NCBI GenBank assembly: GCA_964512925.1 | Contig: CAZEKH010000001.1 | Coordinates: forward strand, 200,226 to 264,225 | Length of the DNA: 64,000 nt | DNA from: an uncultured Candidatus Saccharibacteria bacterium | GTDB lineage: Bacteria; Patescibacteriota; Doudnabacteria; UBA920 | Reading direction: 5' to 3' | Shown here: in pieces, positions 12,296-56,668 of the stretch | Layout of the letters: each line of letters starts with the position of its first letter | Position numbering within the stretch: the first letter of the stretch is position 1 | Notes under the pieces: model-generated | Databases searched by the model: none | What the model saw: only the letters and a program-made list of their open reading frames with translations | Told to the model about the DNA's origin: nothing | Made by a program: the position numbers and the translations under genes

Positions 12296-12317
12296 TTTTT
12301 GCTTTAGGAGGTAGTAA

Positions 12318-12491
12318 ATGCAAAAGGAACTTCGATGCACAAAAGGTCACCTGTTGGTGACCAGAGAATCTGCGGCTGGCATTGAAGCCAGTTGCCCAAC
12401 CTGTCAAATTGAATTAACCCATATTAGCATATTATTGAAAGCTAATGAGGCTGTATGGGCACAAAAGGAGGAAACCTCAACCGCTGTTTAA
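12318..12491 (+). CDS. hypothetical 57-aa protein with zinc-ribbon-like CxxxH…CxxC spacing
   Basis: strong SD AGGAGG 8 nt upstream of ATG; lies between two rho-independent terminators; below the 60-aa ORF-track cutoff. Confidence 0.3.
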   Translation: MQKELRCTKGHLLVTRESAAGIEASCPTCQIELTHISILLKANEAVWAQKEETSTAV

Positions 12492-12597: not shown

Positions 12598-12738
12598 AAA
12601 TAATAGACCATTTTCCTGACCCTGAATAAAAGGGCGAGATTGAGAAAGGAGGAGTGTCATGCGATGGCCTGATGCCACTGGTTGGGGAAATTGATCAAAA
12701 TGATCCGCTTGTAGCCAGAGGGGCGAAGTGCTTTGGCT

Positions 12739-12767
12739 GGCCGAGATTTATTCTCGGCCTTTTTTTA
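12739..12767 (+). terminator. rho-independent terminator (GGCCGAGA…TCTCGGCC + T7)
   Basis: perfect 8-bp stem and T-run. Confidence 0.6.
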
Positions 12768-13857: not shown

Positions 13858-13885
13858 CGGATGTTCCGGGCGCATCACGCACTGG

Positions 13886-18440: not shown

Positions 18441-20795
18441 TTATTGAGCTTTCTTTTTACCATAAACCTTGCGAGGTTTTGGAGGGTTTTCCTTCCAGTG
18501 TTTTAGGGCTTCTTGGAGTTCTGCTTCACTTTCAGGTTTTTTGGACATTATAAAGTTGCAATCCGGAAAACGATTGCAGGCATAAAAGAGTTTACCGCGG
18601 CCGCGGGATTTTCTTTCTACCACATCGCCAGTTTGGCAATTGGGACATTTAAACCCGGTTTTGTTCCAAATTTTGCTGATGCCTTTGCATTTGGGGTAGT
18701 CAACACAGCCCAAGAAAAATCCAAACCGCCCTTTTTTGACTTTCATTTCTTTGCCGCAGATGGGGCAGACTTCGCCCTTGGTTTTTTCTTCCAAAGCTTT
18801 GATCTGGGCTTCTTCTTCCGGCATTGGCTTGGTGGTTTTGCACTCAGTATCTGGGCAGGCCATAAATTTACCGGTCCGGCCGAATTTGATGATCATCATT
18901 TTGCCGCATTTCGGACAGGGGATGGTGGTTACCTCAATCTGTTTTTCCACACTCGCTTCTTTTTCTTTCAGATGTTTTTTGAAAGGTCCGTAAAATTCGT
19001 GCATTACCTCGGTCCATTTCATTTTGCCTTCCGCTATCTGGTCAAATTCTTCTTCTATATGCGAAGTAAAGTTTATATCTACGATCTCAGGAAAATTTTC
19101 AACCAGCATATCGGTTACCAAAAACCCTTCTTCAGTGGGCTTGAATTTTTTTTCTTCCTTGGTTACATAACCGCGGACCTCTATGGTGGACAGTGTAGGA
19201 GCATAGGTTGAGGGTCTGCCAATGCCGTGGGCTTCCAGCGCTTTAACCAGGCTGGCGTCCGTATACCTGGCAGGGGCTTCAGTAAAATGCTGGAGCGGCA
19301 AAAGCTCGTGAAGTTTGAGTTTTTCTTGTTCTGACAGCTCAGGCAGCATACCTTCTATCTCATCTTCCGGTTTTTCATCCGACCCTTCGGTATAGGCGCG
19401 GATAAATCCGTCAAACTTTATGACTTGTCCGTTGGCGCGAAAGACATAATTATTGATCTGCTGATTTTCTGCTTGCCCTTCATAGCCTTGGCGAAGGAGG
19501 GATCTACTGGCAGGCTTGGCTTCTATATCCACCGCAGTTTGTTCCATCAACGCAGCCTGCATCTGACAAGCGATGGTTCGTTTCCAGATTAAGTCATAGA
19601 GCCGAAACTGCTGTCTGTCTAAATATTGTTTTAAATTTTCAGGTTTTCTTAAGACATCGGTTGGACGTATGGCTTCGTGCGCTTCCTGCGCGCCTTTAGA
19701 CTTGTTGGTAAAATGTCTGGGTTCAGACAGACCGTATTCTTTGCCGAATTCGGCAGAGATGACTTGGCCTATGGCAGTTAAAGCTGATTGAGCCAGGTTC
19801 AAACTGTCGGTACGCATATAGGTGATAAGTCCCTGGTGGCCTTCATCGCCAATATCAATTCCTTCATAGAGCTGTTGAGCTACCATCATTGTCTGTTTGG
19901 CTGACATACCGAGTTTGCGCGCCGCTTCTTGTTGGAGCGTGGAAGTGGTAAAAGGGGCGGATGGATTTCTTTTAACTTCTTTTTTGGTAATTTCAGAAAT
20001 TTGATAATTTGCGCCTTCAAGATCAGCGACAATTTTTTTGCCTTCAGTCTCAGACTTGATATCCATTTTGCCCACAGTTTTGTCGCCGATTTTGTGGAGT
20101 TTGGCTATGAAGGTTTTATAACTCCCCCCATCCCCCTCTTTAGTTAAAGAGGGGGTGCCGGAGGCGGGGGAGTTTTTGGATAGCTTTGCTTCTATGCTCC
20201 AATACTCTTCCGCAACGAATTTTTGGATTTCCCTTTCCCGTTCAACAACAAGCCTGACAGCCACTGACTGGACGCGTCCGGCTGAAAGACCATACCGGAT
20301 TTTTCGCCAAAGAAAAGGGGAGAGTTCATAACCTACAAGCCTGTCTAAAACCCGCCGAGCCTGTTGGGCGTCAACCAAGTTGATATCTATAGAGCGGGGG
20401 TTTTCTAAGGCGTGTTGGATGGCGGTTTTGGTAATCTCGTGGAAAACGATGCGTTGAATGTTTTTGACGGATGAGGTTTTGCCTTTAGTTTTATTGAGAT
20501 CCAGCGCTTCTATCAAATGCCAGGAGATACTTTCTCCTTCGCGGTCTTCGTCAGTGGCAAGGATGATTTCCTGGCTGTCCTTGGCCAGTTTTTTTAGTTT
20601 GGCAACAGTTTCTTTGGCTTTAGCTGGGATGGAGTAGGTGGGTTCAAAGTCGTGTTCAGTGTCCACGCCCATTTTGCTTTTTGGCAAGTCGCGTACGTGA
20701 CCAAAGCTGGCTTCTACTGTGTAGCCACTGCCTAAAAAACGCGAGATGGTTCTCGCTTTGGTCGGGGACTCGACGATGATAAGAGGCTTGGACAT
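18441..20795 (-). CDS. topA: DNA topoisomerase I
   Basis: TOPRIM N-terminus, Topo IA core, C-terminal zinc-ribbon repeats; in-frame palindromic-element insertion encoding …NSPASGTPSLTKEGDGGS…. Confidence 0.9.
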   Translation of the reverse strand: MSKPLIIVESPTKARTISRFLGSGYTVEASFGHVRDLPKSKMGVDTEHDFEPTYSIPAKAKETVAKLKKLAKDSQEIILATDEDREGESISWHLIEALDLNKTKGKTSSVKNIQRIVFHEITKTAIQHALENPRSIDINLVDAQQARRVLDRLVGYELSPFLWRKIRYGLSAGRVQSVAVRLVVEREREIQKFVAEEYWSIEAKLSKNSPASGTPSLTKEGDGGSYKTFIAKLHKIGDKTVGKMDIKSETEGKKIVADLEGANYQISEITKKEVKRNPSAPFTTSTLQQEAARKLGMSAKQTMMVAQQLYEGIDIGDEGHQGLITYMRTDSLNLAQSALTAIGQVISAEFGKEYGLSEPRHFTNKSKGAQEAHEAIRPTDVLRKPENLKQYLDRQQFRLYDLIWKRTIACQMQAALMEQTAVDIEAKPASRSLLRQGYEGQAENQQINNYVFRANGQVIKFDGFIRAYTEGSDEKPEDEIEGMLPELSEQEKLKLHELLPLQHFTEAPARYTDASLVKALEAHGIGRPSTYAPTLSTIEVRGYVTKEEKKFKPTEEGFLVTDMLVENFPEIVDINFTSHIEEEFDQIAEGKMKWTEVMHEFYGPFKKHLKEKEASVEKQIEVTTIPCPKCGKMMIIKFGRTGKFMACPDTECKTTKPMPEEEAQIKALEEKTKGEVCPICGKEMKVKKGRFGFFLGCVDYPKCKGISKIWNKTGFKCPNCQTGDVVERKSRGRGKLFYACNRFPDCNFIMSKKPESEAELQEALKHWKENPPKPRKVYGKKKAQ
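20123..20172. repeat. Family-A-like element
   Basis: in frame inside topA. Confidence 0.65.
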
Positions 20796-20984
20796 TAAAT
20801 AATTTTTAAGATTGATGATTTAAGATTTATTGACTGTCTGTCAATGAGTTAGAGTTTAACTTCAAAAAAAAAGATTGTCAAACTGGCTACAAATACTTTA
20901 TAGAGATCTACCAATACCTACAAATAAAATCTGCTTGATTTTTTATAGAAATTTATATATTTTATCTTGAAAGAAGGAGGAGTG

Positions 20985-21068
20985 ATGAAATACATTCACT
21001 TCTTGTATTTTTTGATGATTGATCTTTGCACTCTTTTTTGGTGCTGGATCAAAACCCTGAAACGTTAG
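20985..21068 (+). CDS. 27-aa hydrophobic/aromatic peptide (MKYIHFLYFLMIDLCTLFWCWIKTLKR)
   Basis: perfect SD GAAGGAGG 6 nt upstream of ATG; stop overlaps a strong rho-independent terminator. Confidence 0.35.
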   Translation: MKYIHFLYFLMIDLCTLFWCWIKTLKR

Positions 21069-21106
21069 GCGGCCGACAGTGCGTTCGGCCGCCGCTTTTT
21101 TATTTT
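21068..21106 (+). terminator. rho-independent terminator (GGCGGCCGA…TCGGCCGCC + T-run)
   Basis: 9-bp GC stem followed by TTTTTTATTTT. Confidence 0.65.
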
Positions 21107-22413
21107 AAAGTACTTTCTTTTTCCCCGATTTTTTCTAGGATTTTTTTTGACTCTTCGGGCGTGGCTGGACGGGGCGTGGAAAAGTTTTCTATGATTACCG
21201 GAATTAGTTCTATTGAGTCAAGTTTAGCAGGAGTTTTTGTTCCCTGAAGCTCATTTTGTCCGCCAGCTGGCGGATTGATTTTTGCCTGCCCGCCTTGTGC
21301 GTTCGGGCGGGATATTTGAATTTTTAAAGCTAGTCCTTCTTTGGTTTCCTGACTCCACTCTTGGTCAAAGATGAAGTTGCCGAGAGAGTAGAAGATATAT
21401 TTGGGGTTTGGGCATTGTGTTTTATCAACCTCTCCCCCCGCCATCCCTTCTTGAGGGGAGGGAGTTTCTTGAATCCCCCTCGCCTCTTGAGGAGAGGGGT
21501 TAGGGGAGAGGTTGTCTTTCGCGCAATACCTCTCTATAGTCTGCACCCAGTGAGGGTGAGCGCCGATGACTATGTCTGCCCCGTAGTCTATGGCGCTGTG
21601 GGCAAAGTCAATTTGGGACTGGTTGGGCGTGCGGGTGTATTCTGTTCCGGCGTGCATTGTAGCCACGACAAAATCGCAAAGCGATTTTGAATACTCAATA
21701 TTCAACTTTAAATTTTCAATATCTTCTATCCTGGCTACGAAATCATTCATTATTTTACCCCCGTCATTTACAGAGGAGTAGGAAGCCCCGACAAAACAAA
21801 TTTTTATCCCGTTTTTTTCTAACATAGCAGGCTGCCAGGCCTCTTTTATATTACTTCCTGTTCCCATATGCTTGATACCCGCATCATTCAATTTTTGTAT
21901 AGTTAGGTCCAGCCCGGTTTTTAGTTGGTCTAACGCATGGTTATTGGCCAAGTTCAAAACCTCAAAATTATATTTTTTTAATATATCAACAGAAGAAGTG
22001 GCAGCGCCGAAGACCAGGGAGCTGCCGCCGATTACAGCTTTTTTTGCCAAAGGACTTTCCAGGTTGCCGAAAGCAAAATCTGCGGATTTGAGCTGTTCAG
22101 CCATTTTTAAAAAAGGCAGTTCTGGATCGCCGAATTCTTTGGCTTTAAGGGCAACCTTGCGGGAGAGGATGATATCGCCGACCGCAAGGAAACTTGCGGA
22201 TGTTGTTTTGGGTTCTGTTTTTTCGCCTCTGAGCTCCTGCCCTTTTTTATAAAAAGCCAAAAGGTCGTTTTGCAAATCGCCTGTTTGGGCAGTGGTCGGC
22301 AGGCCTGTAAAGTCATTTTCATTGCTGCGTAAAAGTCCCAAGAGAGCCGCTAGCGCTAAAATACTCGCCACTATAATAGAAATAATTTTTGTTTTTGACA
22401 TAGTTGTAATCAA
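21100..22413 (-). CDS. CapA/PgsA-family metallophosphoesterase-like protein
   Basis: N-terminal TM; CapA motifs (MHAGTEYTRTP…IVIGAHPHWVQ); two adjacent in-frame palindromic-element insertions (…SPNPSPQEARGIQETPSPQEGMAGGE…). Confidence 0.65.
   Translation of the reverse strand: MITTMSKTKIISIIVASILALAALLGLLRSNENDFTGLPTTAQTGDLQNDLLAFYKKGQELRGEKTEPKTTSASFLAVGDIILSRKVALKAKEFGDPELPFLKMAEQLKSADFAFGNLESPLAKKAVIGGSSLVFGAATSSVDILKKYNFEVLNLANNHALDQLKTGLDLTIQKLNDAGIKHMGTGSNIKEAWQPAMLEKNGIKICFVGASYSSVNDGGKIMNDFVARIEDIENLKLNIEYSKSLCDFVVATMHAGTEYTRTPNQSQIDFAHSAIDYGADIVIGAHPHWVQTIERYCAKDNLSPNPSPQEARGIQETPSPQEGMAGGEVDKTQCPNPKYIFYSLGNFIFDQEWSQETKEGLALKIQISRPNAQGGQAKINPPAGGQNELQGTKTPAKLDSIELIPVIIENFSTPRPATPEESKKILEKIGEKESTLK
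21429..21464. repeat. Family-A element
   Basis: in frame inside capA-like CDS. Confidence 0.65.
21475..21513. repeat. Family-A element
   Basis: adjacent second copy inside capA-like CDS. Confidence 0.65.
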
Positions 22414-22481: not shown

Positions 22482-23576
22482 TTATCTGGACAATATGTAT
22501 TGCTGTCCTCCCATATTTCTCACTTTGCCTTTCATTTCCAAAAAAGTCAATGCCGAAGTTGCCAGCCTTGCGTTTAACCCGGAGTCTTTGATCAGCTGGT
22601 CAAGCAGTTTAGGTTCTTTGGACAAGACTGCCAGAATGGATTTTTCTTCAACACTGAGGTCAAAAAGATTTTGCGCTTCCTCGTTTTCCGGCAGAGCTTG
22701 AATGTTTAGGTCTTCAAGGATGTCCGAGGCTTTGGTAACTGGTTTGGCGCCCATCTTTAAAAGGTTATTAGGGCCTTCTGACATCGGGGAGTATATGGGT
22801 CCGGGCACGGCAAAGACCTGGCGGTTTTGTTCCAGCGCGTGGCGGGCTGTGATTAGGCTGCCTGAGTCAAGCCCGCATTCTACCACCAAAGTAGCTGAAG
22901 ACATCCCGGAGATAATGCGGTTTCTGGAAATAAAATGGTGTTGGAGATTTGGAGTTTTAGGCGGGTATTCTGACAACAGAGCTCCGCCGGTTTCAATGAT
23001 TTGCTGAGCCAGCAGTTGGTGATGCTTTGGGTAAACGCTTTGTTCGTCCACGCCGCCGCCTAACACAGCCATAGTCCTTTTTCCGGCTTTGACCGCGGTT
23101 TCGTGCGCCAGCGCATCCACGCCAAAAGCCAGGCCGGAAACTATGGTTGCGCCCTGTCGGCAAAGCGGTAAAACTAAATCCGGCGTTACTGTCCGGCCGT
23201 AAGTCGTGATTTTTCTTGAGCCTACCACAGCCACGCAGAGTTCCTCGGTGTTTTCCATTTTACCCCTGACATATAACAGGGGAGGGAGGTCGGGGATCTC
23301 CAGTAAAAGTTTGGGATAGTTTTCAGACTTAAAATCTATTATTTGGATGTTTTGTAAATCGAGTTTTTCTTTTTCTTTTTCCAAATCCAAGGAGGATTTA
23401 AGTTTCAGCCATTCCTCTATAATAGAGTTTTCGAGCCCGGCTTGTTGTAACTGCTCTGCTTTGGCGTTAAATGCTGATTTAAAATCATTGTGAAAATACC
23501 GGCAAATACGCATTAGCCTTGTCGGGCCTATGGAAGGGATAAGTTTAAACGCGTGCAAAAATATGGAATTATTCAT
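22482..23576 (-). CDS. dprA: DNA processing protein DprA (Smf)
   Basis: Rossmann-like DprA core VAVVGSRK…SGLAFGVDA…GGGVD. Confidence 0.8.
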   Translation of the reverse strand: MNNSIFLHAFKLIPSIGPTRLMRICRYFHNDFKSAFNAKAEQLQQAGLENSIIEEWLKLKSSLDLEKEKEKLDLQNIQIIDFKSENYPKLLLEIPDLPPLLYVRGKMENTEELCVAVVGSRKITTYGRTVTPDLVLPLCRQGATIVSGLAFGVDALAHETAVKAGKRTMAVLGGGVDEQSVYPKHHQLLAQQIIETGGALLSEYPPKTPNLQHHFISRNRIISGMSSATLVVECGLDSGSLITARHALEQNRQVFAVPGPIYSPMSEGPNNLLKMGAKPVTKASDILEDLNIQALPENEEAQNLFDLSVEEKSILAVLSKEPKLLDQLIKDSGLNARLATSALTFLEMKGKVRNMGGQQYILSR

Positions 23577-48486: not shown

Positions 48487-51165
48487 ATGCAAATCAAAGA
48501 AAATCTGCAAACAAGAAAAAAAAACGCTTTAGGCGAGTTGGGCGAAAAAATCTTTTTGGACCGCTATGCGGTCAAAGATATGAAAAGGGAAACCTTGGCC
48601 GTGGGCGACCGGGTGGTGGTTTTGGTTAATCCAAAAACCGGACAACGCGAGATAGGCGAAATAGAAACTTTGGATTTGACGCTAAATCAGGTGACAGTTA
48701 AGATGCGCGACGGACAGATAGAAACCAGACTGATTGAGCATATAGACAAGCCGCTGGAAACTGTGCCGGAACAGATGTTTGAGAGAATGGCCAAACATAT
48801 CGCCAGCGCCGAGAGGACAGAAGAAAAAAAGAAAGAGTGGACAGACAAGTTCCGCGAAATGATGGATGACTGGAAATATGTGCCAGCTGGGCGCATCTTT
48901 ACTGGCGCGGGCACGGGACAGAACCTGACTTTTTATAACTGCTATGTTTTGCCTTGTCCGAAAGATTCCCGCTCCGGCATTTTTAAAGCTTTGTCCGATA
49001 TGGCGGAGATTTTTTCCCGCGGCGGCGGCAACGGGCTGAATGTTTCCACTCTCAGGCCAAAATACGCTTATGTTAAAGGCGTGAACGGACGCTCTTCCGG
49101 CGCGGTTTCCTGGGCATCGTTGTATTCATTTGTTACAGGTTTGATAGAGCAAGGCGGCAGTAGGCGCGGCGCTTTGATGTTGATTTTAAATGTCTGGCAT
49201 CCGGATGTGATTGATTTCATTAACTCTAAAAAACAAGCTGGCAATATCACCAATGCCAACATTTCCGTTGGTATCACAGACGAGTTTATGAAAGCCGTAA
49301 AAGAAGACGCGCCTTGGGATTTGGTTTTCCCAGACACTTCCGACCCTTTGTACGACTCCCACTGGCAGGAATGCCAGGGCGACATCCGCAAGTGGAAAAC
49401 TTTAGGCGGCAAAATCAACAAATACAAAACTGTCAGAGCCCGAGACATTTGGGACAATATCATTGAGTCGGCCTGGTCTTCGGCTGAGCCGGGGATGTAT
49501 TTCATTGATCAGGCTAACTATTATTCCAACTCCTGGTACTATGCCACTTTGCCTTGCACCAACCCGTGCGGCGAGCAGCCACTGCCGGCTTGGGGTGTTT
49601 GCAATTTAGGGCACGTGAATTTAGCCAAGCATATCAACAAAGATACCGGTGAAGTTTTGTGGAACGACCTAAAGCAAACCGTGTCGTACGCGGTACGTTT
49701 TCAGGATGATGTCATAGACGCCACCCCGTACTTTTTCGATGAAAATAAAAATCAGCAGATGGGGGAGAGACGGGTTGGCTTAGGAACTTTGGGTTTGGCG
49801 GAAATGCTTATCTATAAACAGATTCGTTACGGCAGTCCAGAGGCTGTGGAGTTCATAGACAAACTCTACCAGTTCATTGCCATCACGGCTTACGAAACTT
49901 CAGTTGAGTTGGCGCGGGAAAAAGGCGCGTTTCCGAAGTTTGACGCGGAAAAGTTTTTACAATCCGGATTTATGAAAGGTATGCCGGAATACATCCGCCA
50001 GATGGTGCGCCAGCACGGCATCAGAAATGTTACCATCTTAACCCAGGCGCCGACCGGCACTGTGGGAACAATGGTTGGAACTTCCACTGGCATTGAACCG
50101 TTTTTCTCCTGGACGTATTTTAGAAAGTCCAGGCTTGGCGTTCACGAAGAAAAAATAAAACTGGCTTCCGAATATTTGGAAAAGCATCCGGAAATTTCCG
50201 AGCTGCCGAAGTTTTTTGCCACAGCTATGGATTTAACCCCGGAAGAGCACGTAAAAGTTCAGGCTGCGGTGCAAAGATGGACTGACTCAGCTATCTCTAA
50301 AACTTGCAATGCTCCTTCTAACTACTCCATCGAACAAACCAAACAGCTTTATACTTTGATGTATGATTTGGGCTGTAAAGGCGGAACTATTTACCGCGAC
50401 GGCAGCAGGGATGAGCAGATCTTAGCCACTGACCATAAAAAACTGGGCAAGGATGCTTCGGACCAGGTGGAGGCTTCTTCAGTCAAGGAGCAGGCTAAAG
50501 AAGGCAAAGAAGAAAGAGTGAGAGAGGTGATGTCAGTATCTGGAGAAAATGTACAGATCAAAATCGCGCCGCGTCAGAGGCCGGACACAATGCAGGGCGT
50601 AACTTATAAGATGAATACAGCTTACGGCAATTTGTATGTAACCATCAACGAAGACTTGCATGGTCCGTTTGAAGTTTTTGCCCAGATGGGCAAAGCTGGA
50701 GGGTTTTTCTCAGCCCAGACTGAAGCTATCACTCGGCTTGTGTCTTTGTCACTTAGAAGCAATGTGGCTATAGAAGAAATCATTGACCAGCTTAAAGGTA
50801 TCCGCGGGCCAGATGTGTCGTTCTCCCAGGAAGGCATGGTATTTTCTCTTCCCGATGCTATGGCCAAAGTTTTGGAAAAGCATATCAAACGCGGCCAACA
50901 GCAGCTGAGTTTGCCAATGAACCAGCCGGATTTGTCTTTAAAATCGCCTTCAGCTCCTGCGGTAGAAAAAGTCCAGGAAAAAGTTGTGGAAACTTTGTCC
51001 TCGGTGCAGGTGACAGCCGGCGGCGCTACTTTGACCCAAAAAACCCAAAGGGTGTCCATAGCTAACTTAGGCAATGCTCCGGTGTGCCCCACCTGCGCCA
51101 ATATGATGGTTTTTGCGGAAGGCTGTATGAAATGCGAAGCTTGCGGGTACAGTAAATGCGGATAG
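48487..51165 (+). CDS. nrdJ: class II (adenosylcobalamin-dependent) ribonucleotide reductase
   Basis: RNR class II core (…CNLGHVNL…, …TCNPCGEQPLP…), C-terminal CxxC…CxxC zinc ribbon; adjacent nrdR. Confidence 0.85.
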   Translation: MQIKENLQTRKKNALGELGEKIFLDRYAVKDMKRETLAVGDRVVVLVNPKTGQREIGEIETLDLTLNQVTVKMRDGQIETRLIEHIDKPLETVPEQMFERMAKHIASAERTEEKKKEWTDKFREMMDDWKYVPAGRIFTGAGTGQNLTFYNCYVLPCPKDSRSGIFKALSDMAEIFSRGGGNGLNVSTLRPKYAYVKGVNGRSSGAVSWASLYSFVTGLIEQGGSRRGALMLILNVWHPDVIDFINSKKQAGNITNANISVGITDEFMKAVKEDAPWDLVFPDTSDPLYDSHWQECQGDIRKWKTLGGKINKYKTVRARDIWDNIIESAWSSAEPGMYFIDQANYYSNSWYYATLPCTNPCGEQPLPAWGVCNLGHVNLAKHINKDTGEVLWNDLKQTVSYAVRFQDDVIDATPYFFDENKNQQMGERRVGLGTLGLAEMLIYKQIRYGSPEAVEFIDKLYQFIAITAYETSVELAREKGAFPKFDAEKFLQSGFMKGMPEYIRQMVRQHGIRNVTILTQAPTGTVGTMVGTSTGIEPFFSWTYFRKSRLGVHEEKIKLASEYLEKHPEISELPKFFATAMDLTPEEHVKVQAAVQRWTDSAISKTCNAPSNYSIEQTKQLYTLMYDLGCKGGTIYRDGSRDEQILATDHKKLGKDASDQVEASSVKEQAKEGKEERVREVMSVSGENVQIKIAPRQRPDTMQGVTYKMNTAYGNLYVTINEDLHGPFEVFAQMGKAGGFFSAQTEAITRLVSLSLRSNVAIEEIIDQLKGIRGPDVSFSQEGMVFSLPDAMAKVLEKHIKRGQQQLSLPMNQPDLSLKSPSAPAVEKVQEKVVETLSSVQVTAGGATLTQKTQRVSIANLGNAPVCPTCANMMVFAEGCMKCEACGYSKCG

Positions 51166-56635: not shown

Positions 56636-56668
56636 CCCCCTCCCTTGAGGGGAGGGGTTAGGGGAGGG
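56636..56668. repeat. Family-A element
   Basis: intergenic between cyclophilin and ndk. Confidence 0.7.

Follow-up and report, generated by a model that had tools for sequence, protein, structure and literature searches.

The window analyzed here, a 64-kb stretch of DNA to which all positions refer, comes from an uncultured Patescibacteria (CPR) bacterium. Its nearest counterparts among GTDB genomes and metagenomes are MAGs that carry the label Doudnabacteria, Yanofskybacteria or 'Saccharibacteria' and whose TopA proteins are at most 75% identical to that of the window; a TopA scan of GTDB genomes and JGI metagenomes yielded no relative above this value, and in a search of 5.8 billion protein clusters with the CapA protein the next-best match was 58% identical. 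According to Pfam, the minus strand carries the genes der, pth, dprA, a PGA_cap/CapA-like gene (referred to below as capA) and topA, in this order (Table 1). A sequence-only reading had proposed a tiny gene of its own between topA and capA, and both flanking genes were confirmed by Pfam. The spacer between them is 304 nt long (20796-21099), and the mini-gene lies on its plus strand. The sole further copy of the locus is in a Logan contig that is 100% identical; the mini-ORF is not called as a gene there, nor was it called by any gene caller or source.

Table 1. Features in and around the topA-capA spacer and at the nrdR locus (positions in the window; hairpins 1 and 2 are predicted)
Feature	Position	Strand	Details
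topA	18441-20795	-	Pfam: Toprim, Topoisom_bac, Zn ribbons
topA promoter	20853-20881	-	TTGACA-17-TAAACT (promoter scan); divergent from the mini-gene
Three CTACMAATA copies	20887-20926		Starts 20887, 20908 and 20918; between the divergent topA and mini-gene promoters
Putative mini-gene promoter	20935-20963	+	Weak; -35 TTGATT (20935-20940), 17-nt spacer, -10 TATTTT (20958-20963)
Hairpin 1	20965-21018	+	SD GGAGG and AUG paired with codons 5-9 (CAUUCACUUCUU); -14.4 kcal/mol
Shine-Dalgarno sequence	20973-20980	+	GAAGGAGG; perfect, 8 nt; read from the sequence
Mini-ORF	20985-21068	+	ATG at 20985, 27 codons, TAG at 21066-21068; product MKYIHFLYFLMIDLCTLFWCWIKTLKR
Hairpin 2	21019-21052	+	Inside the ORF; UUGAUCU..GCAC / GUGC.GGAUCAA; -13 kcal/mol
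Intrinsic terminator	21068-21106	+	9-bp stem (21068-21076 / 21085-21093), 8-nt loop, T-run from 21095
capA (PGA_cap/CapA-like)	21100-22413	-	Pfam; stop codon 21100-21102
dprA	22482-23576	-	Pfam
nrdR	47817-48263		
Class II-like ribonucleotide reductase gene	48487-51165		

Expression signals in the topA-capA spacer

A ribosome-binding signal precedes the start codon of the mini-ORF, the frame is open, and the predicted transcript has a defined end. Its 27 codons and stop are borne out by the sequence, the ORF list and the translation, although the ORF list gives the frame as 20967..21068, counted from an upstream TTG. The Shine-Dalgarno (SD) sequence that had been described in front of the ATG is present, but not the 6-nt gap said to separate the two: the measured distance is 4 nt (AGTG), and 6 nt is reached only by counting from the inner GGAG. 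In this genome such a signal is exceptional. About 4 of the 61 long genes of the window have an SD, which makes the genome almost SD-less, and the starts of long genes are instead preceded by A/T-rich sequence, as at topA (aaaaattatttaATG). The few strong SDs in the window belong to three signal-peptide proteins (33917, 36794 and 39094), to small ORFs at 12318 and 12659, and to the mini-ORF. The same contrast is seen in relatives, where topA is SD-less and the gene occupying the position of the mini-gene is SD-led.

To judge how often such a combination arises by chance, we counted strong 6-mer SDs followed 3-9 nt later by an ATG that opens a frame of at least 25 codons, using dinucleotide shuffles for comparison. 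This combination occurred in 0.18% of 5000 shuffles of the topA-capA spacer, and across the 11 kb of non-coding DNA in the window three cases were observed versus 0.19 expected. The SD and ORF signals thus exceed chance expectation. Two further SD-led frames were observed in an otherwise empty 0.9-kb gap: a 57-aa Cys-rich ORF (MQKELRCTKGH...CPTCQ...; 12307-12491) with no Pfam match, and an 11-codon mini-ORF (MRWPDATGWGN; 12648-12759) with a canonical terminator at 12739-12759.

Downstream, the stop codon overlaps a GC hairpin followed by a T-run, as had been noted: the G of TAG is the first base of the stem. The terminator scan identified a stem of GGCGGCCGA and TCGGCCGCC, in which 8 of the 9 pairs are GC, followed by GCTTTTTTAT on the plus strand; the sequence 3' of the stem reads GCTTTTTTATTTT. 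Since five of the seven T's (21095-21099) fall beyond the end of the capA ORF at 21100, coding for CapA does not account for the T-run. The terminator region is shared convergently by the mini-gene and capA. Read on the minus strand, the stem leads into UAACGUUUCAGGG, a poor U-tract. Other hairpins with T-runs in the window stand on the sense strand at gene ends (for example at 13858, minus; 18256, 12739 and 8325, plus), and because the terminators of the window match gene orientation in this way, the plus-strand T-run argues for a plus-strand transcript.

These observations bear on the simplest alternative, that the hairpin is a terminator of capA, or an insulator in front of the topA promoter, and that the SD-like string and the frame are coincidental. 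A GC hairpin does follow capA in relatives that have no gene at this position (e.g., L008 and L075), similar hairpin sequences occur in L164, L083 and L005 whatever ORF lies upstream, and hydrophobic ORFs arise from T-rich DNA. However, the spacer shuffles give a probability of 0.0018, the T-run is on the plus strand while the minus-strand tail is U-poor, SDs are otherwise rare in this genome, and relatives have positional analogues of the mini-gene. We therefore consider coincidence very improbable.

The 5' end of the unit is placed with less precision. As transcription has to start between the topA promoter and the SD, a plus-strand unit must begin within 20882-20972. The putative mini-gene promoter in Table 1, for which TATATT at 20956-20961 is an alternative -10 element, scores 8/12 and is below the threshold of the promoter scan, which instead reports TAGAGA-18-TAAAAT at 20901-20930 (9/12).

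The peptide and the capA-topA slot in related bacteria

The product has one hydrophobic helix and a basic tail: residues 4-22 form the helix (mean Kyte-Doolittle value 1.76), 11 of the 15 residues of the segment FLYFLMIDLCTLFWC are hydrophobic, and the peptide ends in W-I-K-T-L-K-R, with KTLKR as the tail. This hydrophobicity is partly compositional because a T-rich strand by itself favours F, L, Y, I, C and W codons. The codon-usage log-likelihood of the mini-ORF is -2.2, compared with means of -2.7 for spurious ORFs and +7.7 for 27-codon windows of true genes, only 1.6% of which score as low. Nevertheless, codon usage cannot separate this class of ORF, as the 71-85 aa ORFs found at the same position in relatives score equally low in their own genomes. 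Within the mini-ORF a direct repeat was also seen at 21008-21050 (TTTTTTGATGATTGATC and TTTTTTGGTGCTGGATC; 82% identical, 26 nt apart, a distance not divisible by 3); the repeat overlaps with hairpin 2 and is similar to the TTTAAGATTGAT repeats found in the topA leader.

Searches for homologues of the peptide gave nothing credible. When the peptide and the spacer were compared with 161 related loci by tblastn and blastn, the only match was to the identical Logan contig. Exact look-up of the 27-, 28- and 33-aa forms in 15 billion predicted proteins returned none, and phmmer with the 33-aa form against 1.84 billion representatives returned one spurious match (E = 8e-4). The peptide has no family match in Pfam, NCBIfam or PADLOC, blastn against a phage collection found no match, and the 64-kb window holds no paralogue or tandem copy of the mini-gene. 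The spacer can be aligned with those of relatives at the topA promoter block only, so that for the mini-gene itself there are positional analogues only.

Such analogues are frequent. Relatives with the pth-dprA-capA-topA order often have an SD-led small ORF in the slot between capA and topA, and these slot genes are divergent from topA and convergent with capA, which is the orientation of the mini-gene. Each of them has a strong SD and its own hairpin with a T-run abutting the capA stop. The ORFs are of 31 and 47 aa in L002, 34 and 48 aa in L003, 41 aa in L004, 85 aa in L162, 71 and 100 aa in L163, 82 aa in L164 and 73 aa in L083; all except the 100-aa ORF of L163 are hydrophobic and have either one TM helix or two. 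The slot proteins of L002 and L003 are homologous (47% identity, E = 7e-13). As the protein is conserved although the DNA has diverged, these two at least are real genes. In an all-against-all BLASTP comparison of the slot proteins, this was the only pair apart from a weak L003/L004 match, and the window peptide showed no similarity to any slot protein in any frame. We also considered whether the window peptide might correspond to the C-terminal helix of a two-TM slot family, but this could not be shown as BLASTP gave no pairing. In our survey of the clade, an SD-led gene divergent from topA was recurrent, being sometimes a soluble protein family further out, and slot genes upstream of topA were also found in relatives without capA. 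The slot is empty, with a spacer of 95-200 nt, in L007, L008, L075, L082, L019 and L023. With its mostly non-homologous occupants and its empty cases, this position is thus a hotspot of fast-turnover small genes.

Some details of these slots were recorded in passing. L002 (3480-4010, reverse strand) and L003 (3450-4010) each hold two tandem small ORFs; in L003 a TATAAT box lies 6 nt before the start of the first ORF (34 aa), whose mRNA may therefore be leaderless, and the first ORF of L002 is frameshifted after codon 3 relative to that of L003, being either a pseudogene or an assembly error. The slot-ORF terminator hairpin is nearly identical in L164, L083 and L005 (GGCGGTGCGAGTGACA(A/G)CG(T/C)(G/A)CCGCC), and the ORFs upstream of it, which encode two 2-TM proteins and a basic protein, are unrelated. 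In these three, the hairpin next to capA is better conserved than the gene that it terminates.

Given this turnover, the mini-ORF could be a decaying relic of a longer slot gene like those of L162, L164 and L083, in which an internal deletion left the SD, the start, a short frame and the terminator; the remnant may still be transcribed, but without a selected function. Slot genes are often gained and lost, as the six empty slots indicate. The spacer of the window is longer than those of empty slots and shorter than those of occupied slots (335-1000 nt), the mini-ORF is shorter than every slot gene found in relatives, a frameshifted slot ORF occurs in L002, the codon usage of the mini-ORF resembles that of non-coding DNA, and the window and L164 share the same layout over the topA-proximal 130 nt and differ beyond it. 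On the other hand, all expression signals are intact and the frame extends exactly to the terminator, no frame showed leftover similarity to a slot protein, and hairpins 1 and 2 are more stable than shuffled sequences, which is unexpected under random decay. On balance, we consider a relic unlikely. The proposal that a tiny gene stands here independently, with an SD and a terminator of its own, is supported by the rare signals, the orientation of the terminator and the analogous slot genes of relatives.

Predicted RNA structure and comparison with known small proteins

The transcript predicted for 20965-21106 folds into three hairpins, the third being the terminator, with a free energy of -47.7 kcal/mol and a z-score of -4.45; when the terminator is left out, z is between -3.0 and -4.3. 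For comparison, the 5' ends of 30 long genes have a mean z of -0.1 (sd 1.1) and a minimum of -2.2. Hairpin 1 has a z of -2.8, with 3 of 300 shuffles folding as well, and hairpin 2 a z of -4.7, with 0 of 300 folding as well. However, some clearly coding slot mRNAs of relatives are equally structured (L162, z = -5.8; L004, -2.9), so the z-score cannot tell an mRNA from an sRNA, and the three-hairpin fold fits either a translationally gated mRNA or an sRNA.

The latter reading would have the locus encode a structured sRNA of about 140 nt, trans-acting or dual-function, in which the ORF is incidental or vestigial. It is favoured by the strength of the fold relative to the 5' ends of long genes, by the burial of the SD and AUG in predicted hairpin 1 and by the non-coding-like codon usage. 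Yet nothing relevant was found at the mini-gene in Rfam up to an E value of 10 (the best local match was an L20 leader at 20.6 bits versus a gathering score of 58.7; at the gathering score only two tRNAs pass in the whole window), and the mini-gene RNA has no complementarity elsewhere in the window longer than 12-nt chance matches. The structure of the coding slot mRNAs also speaks against this reading, which moreover leaves unexplained why the ATG of the only long frame should have a perfect 8-nt SD 4 nt upstream of it. An sRNA is thus rather unlikely in our view. A leader peptide or attenuator was likewise considered and rejected, as downstream on the plus strand there is only antisense capA.

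The sequence-only reading had compared the peptide with type I toxins. In the type I toxin screen of Fozo et al. 2010, candidates are 16-70 aa long, with at least 10 of 15 residues drawn from I, V, L, F, C, M and A, and have a polar, aromatic or charged C-terminus (PMC2887945). The peptide, with 27 aa, 11 of 15 hydrophobic residues and a C-terminal W followed by K/R, lies within these sequence limits, and occlusion of the ribosome-binding site, a further criterion for type I toxin mRNAs, is predicted for hairpin 1. In these respects it is similar to Fst/Ldr and PepA1/SprA1, with which it shares the length of 27 aa, a hydrophobic helix with a tryptophan at its end and K/R thereafter, a predicted SD-occluded structured mRNA, and a stand-alone intergenic unit with a strong terminator. 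In contrast to these toxins, it has no detectable antitoxin RNA, tandem copies or family match. The search for an antisense promoter proposed in that reading turned up, as minus-strand promoter-like sites within 20300-21700, the two topA sites only (20881 and 20844), neither over nor beside the ORF; and Pfam, NCBIfam and PADLOC gave no match to Hok, Fst/Ldr, TisB, Ibs, ShoB, TxpA or other toxin families. As no antitoxin RNA, tandem copies or family match was found, the mini-gene is not filed as a type I toxin and the earlier label is unsupported.

A toxin is nonetheless one form that a coding gene at this locus could take: a membrane-damaging peptide silenced by the 5' hairpin and an antisense RNA, for instance from convergent capA read-through, as the minus strand has no good U-tract and capA transcripts could therefore run antisense into the mini-ORF. 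Besides the missing antisense promoter, toxin-family match and tandem or paralogous copies in the 64 kb, the slot genes of relatives argue against this, being mostly 2-TM proteins of 70-85 aa and thus unlike type I toxins. We regard this subset of the coding reading as improbable.

Small membrane proteins translated from unannotated sORFs are known in E. coli, where KdpF, PmrR, MgtS, AcrZ and CydX are examples; these proteins have known partners, belong to conserved families and are often encoded in an operon with the partner. The mini-gene resembles them in a product of less than 50 aa with one TM helix and a short charged tail, in having its own SD and in being missed by gene callers. It differs in that its peptide is an orphan, with no homologue in 1.84 billion representatives, and in that it is a stand-alone unit. 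The slot genes of relatives share with it their position and orientation, a strong SD in SD-poor genomes, a hairpin and T-run abutting capA and a hydrophobic product, but they mostly encode 41-85 aa, often with two TM helices, and have no sequence similarity to the peptide. By analogy, the mini-gene would work most like generic sORF-encoded small membrane proteins.

A neighbouring CapA-like protein brings to mind CapE/PgsE, a small membrane peptide that is encoded co-oriented in the capBCA(D)E operons for poly-gamma-glutamate synthesis. As in those operons, a small hydrophobic peptide is encoded beside a CapA/PGA_cap gene. We rejected the analogy: the mini-ORF and capA converge, the nearest other genes are dprA and topA with neither capB nor capC, and there is no Pfam match. 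Furthermore, slot genes occur upstream of topA in relatives even without capA, unlike CapE/PgsE.

Our preferred reading is that the locus carries a genuine, lineage-specific orphan mini-gene for a small membrane protein, to which we give about an even chance. Starting from what is directly seen (the sequence signals and how rare they are, the analogues at this position in relatives, and the RNA fold as predicted), we infer its transcription, translation, membrane insertion and function as follows: a short plus-strand transcript of about 130-170 nt would arise from the weak promoter at ~20935-20963, divergent from the topA promoter, and would end at the hairpin and T-run (21068-21106); translation, initiated at one of the few strong SD sites of the genome and probably throttled by the 5' hairpin that is predicted to pair the SD and AUG with codons 5-9, would yield a peptide of 27 residues that crosses the membrane once; the positive-inside rule would place its KTLKR tail in the cytoplasm and its N-terminus on the outside; and the peptide would most likely modulate a membrane function or a partner, a membrane-damaging toxin being a minority possibility. 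The mini-gene would thereby fill a capA-topA slot that in related Patescibacteria holds other fast-turnover SD-led genes for small membrane proteins. In short, it looks like an unannotated sORF for a small membrane protein, and its peptide has no detectable relatives.

Repeats between the divergent promoters and the architecture of the locus

The region between the topA promoter and the putative mini-gene promoter holds three copies of CTACMAATA. A distance of 31 bp separates copies 1 and 3, and the first copy lies within an imperfect palindrome, CTACAAATA-C-TTTATAG. The same repeat layout, at the same distances from topA, is present in L164 (CTACAGAAA three times), and L004 has a comparable tandem pair. 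The repeats may serve as a binding site for a regulator of topA, of the mini-gene or of both.

A related tandem motif was found in the spacer between nrdR and the ribonucleotide reductase (RNR) gene, at 48347-48365, 48400-48418 and 48447-48465, with a shared 13-mer, ATACCTACAAATA; the window contains six matches to this type of motif versus 0.48 expected. In Pseudomonas aeruginosa, topA is under NrdR control (PMC4409342). The CTAC repeats may be a regulator site that ties topA to the nrd regulon. As a separate observation, the canonical 16-bp NrdR-box consensus is matched best, within the window, by sites upstream of nrdR at 47700-47748 (ACACAATATGTAGTAG, 13/16; AGACTAGATAGAGTGA; ATACTAGATGTAGTAA), and these NrdR-box-like sites have GTAG, the reverse complement of CTAC, as their right half-site in place of GTGT.

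The topA leader has repeats of its own. Its 5' UTR (20805-20845) contains a tandem repeat, TTTAAGATTGAT / TTTAAGATTTAT, with starts at 20805 and 20819, and a palindrome, ATTGAC-TGTCT-GTCAAT (20829-20845), lies just downstream of the topA -10 element; L002 and L164 have similar tandem repeats in their topA leaders. The elements could form an operator or a leader stem-loop.

The arrangement also admits an explanation in which the selected feature is not the peptide but the architecture, with a short mini-gene, strongly translated, membrane-targeted and divergent from topA, tuning the topA promoter by transertion. Co-transcriptional membrane insertion would tether the complex engaged in transcription and drive negative supercoils into the promoter region common to both genes; these would tune a supercoiling-sensitive topA promoter; and the CTAC repeats, which recur in the nrdR-RNR spacer, could add nucleotide-pool sensing. 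If true, this would explain why non-homologous membrane mini-genes, each led by an unusually strong SD, repeatedly fill one slot. We consider it very improbable.

If the mini-gene, as in our preferred reading, is translated, an orphan 27-residue membrane peptide would join the small and poorly charted proteome of Patescibacteria, in whose episymbiotic lifestyle membrane functions are central and whose ORFs of this size are dropped by gene callers. The pattern as a whole may prove of greater use than the one peptide: in this SD-poor clade, a strong SD is the mark of a small membrane protein or a secreted protein, and together with the repeatedly refilled topA slot this provides a practical rule for finding small genes that have been missed. 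The pattern also makes a connection between divergent transcription of the mini-gene and the control of topA open to testing.

A further observation concerns the neighbouring capA gene. The CapA-like protein contains a low-complexity insert, NLSPNPSPQEARGIQETPSPQEGMAGGE, encoded at 21426-21525. The DNA for this insert is G/C-rich and partly palindromic, and it resembles GGGGAGGG-type elements elsewhere in the window, with a match of 23 nt at 96% identity at 56644-56666. Paired GGAGG sequences on both strands at ~36630, 38290, 56650 and 60480 look like members of the same repeat family.
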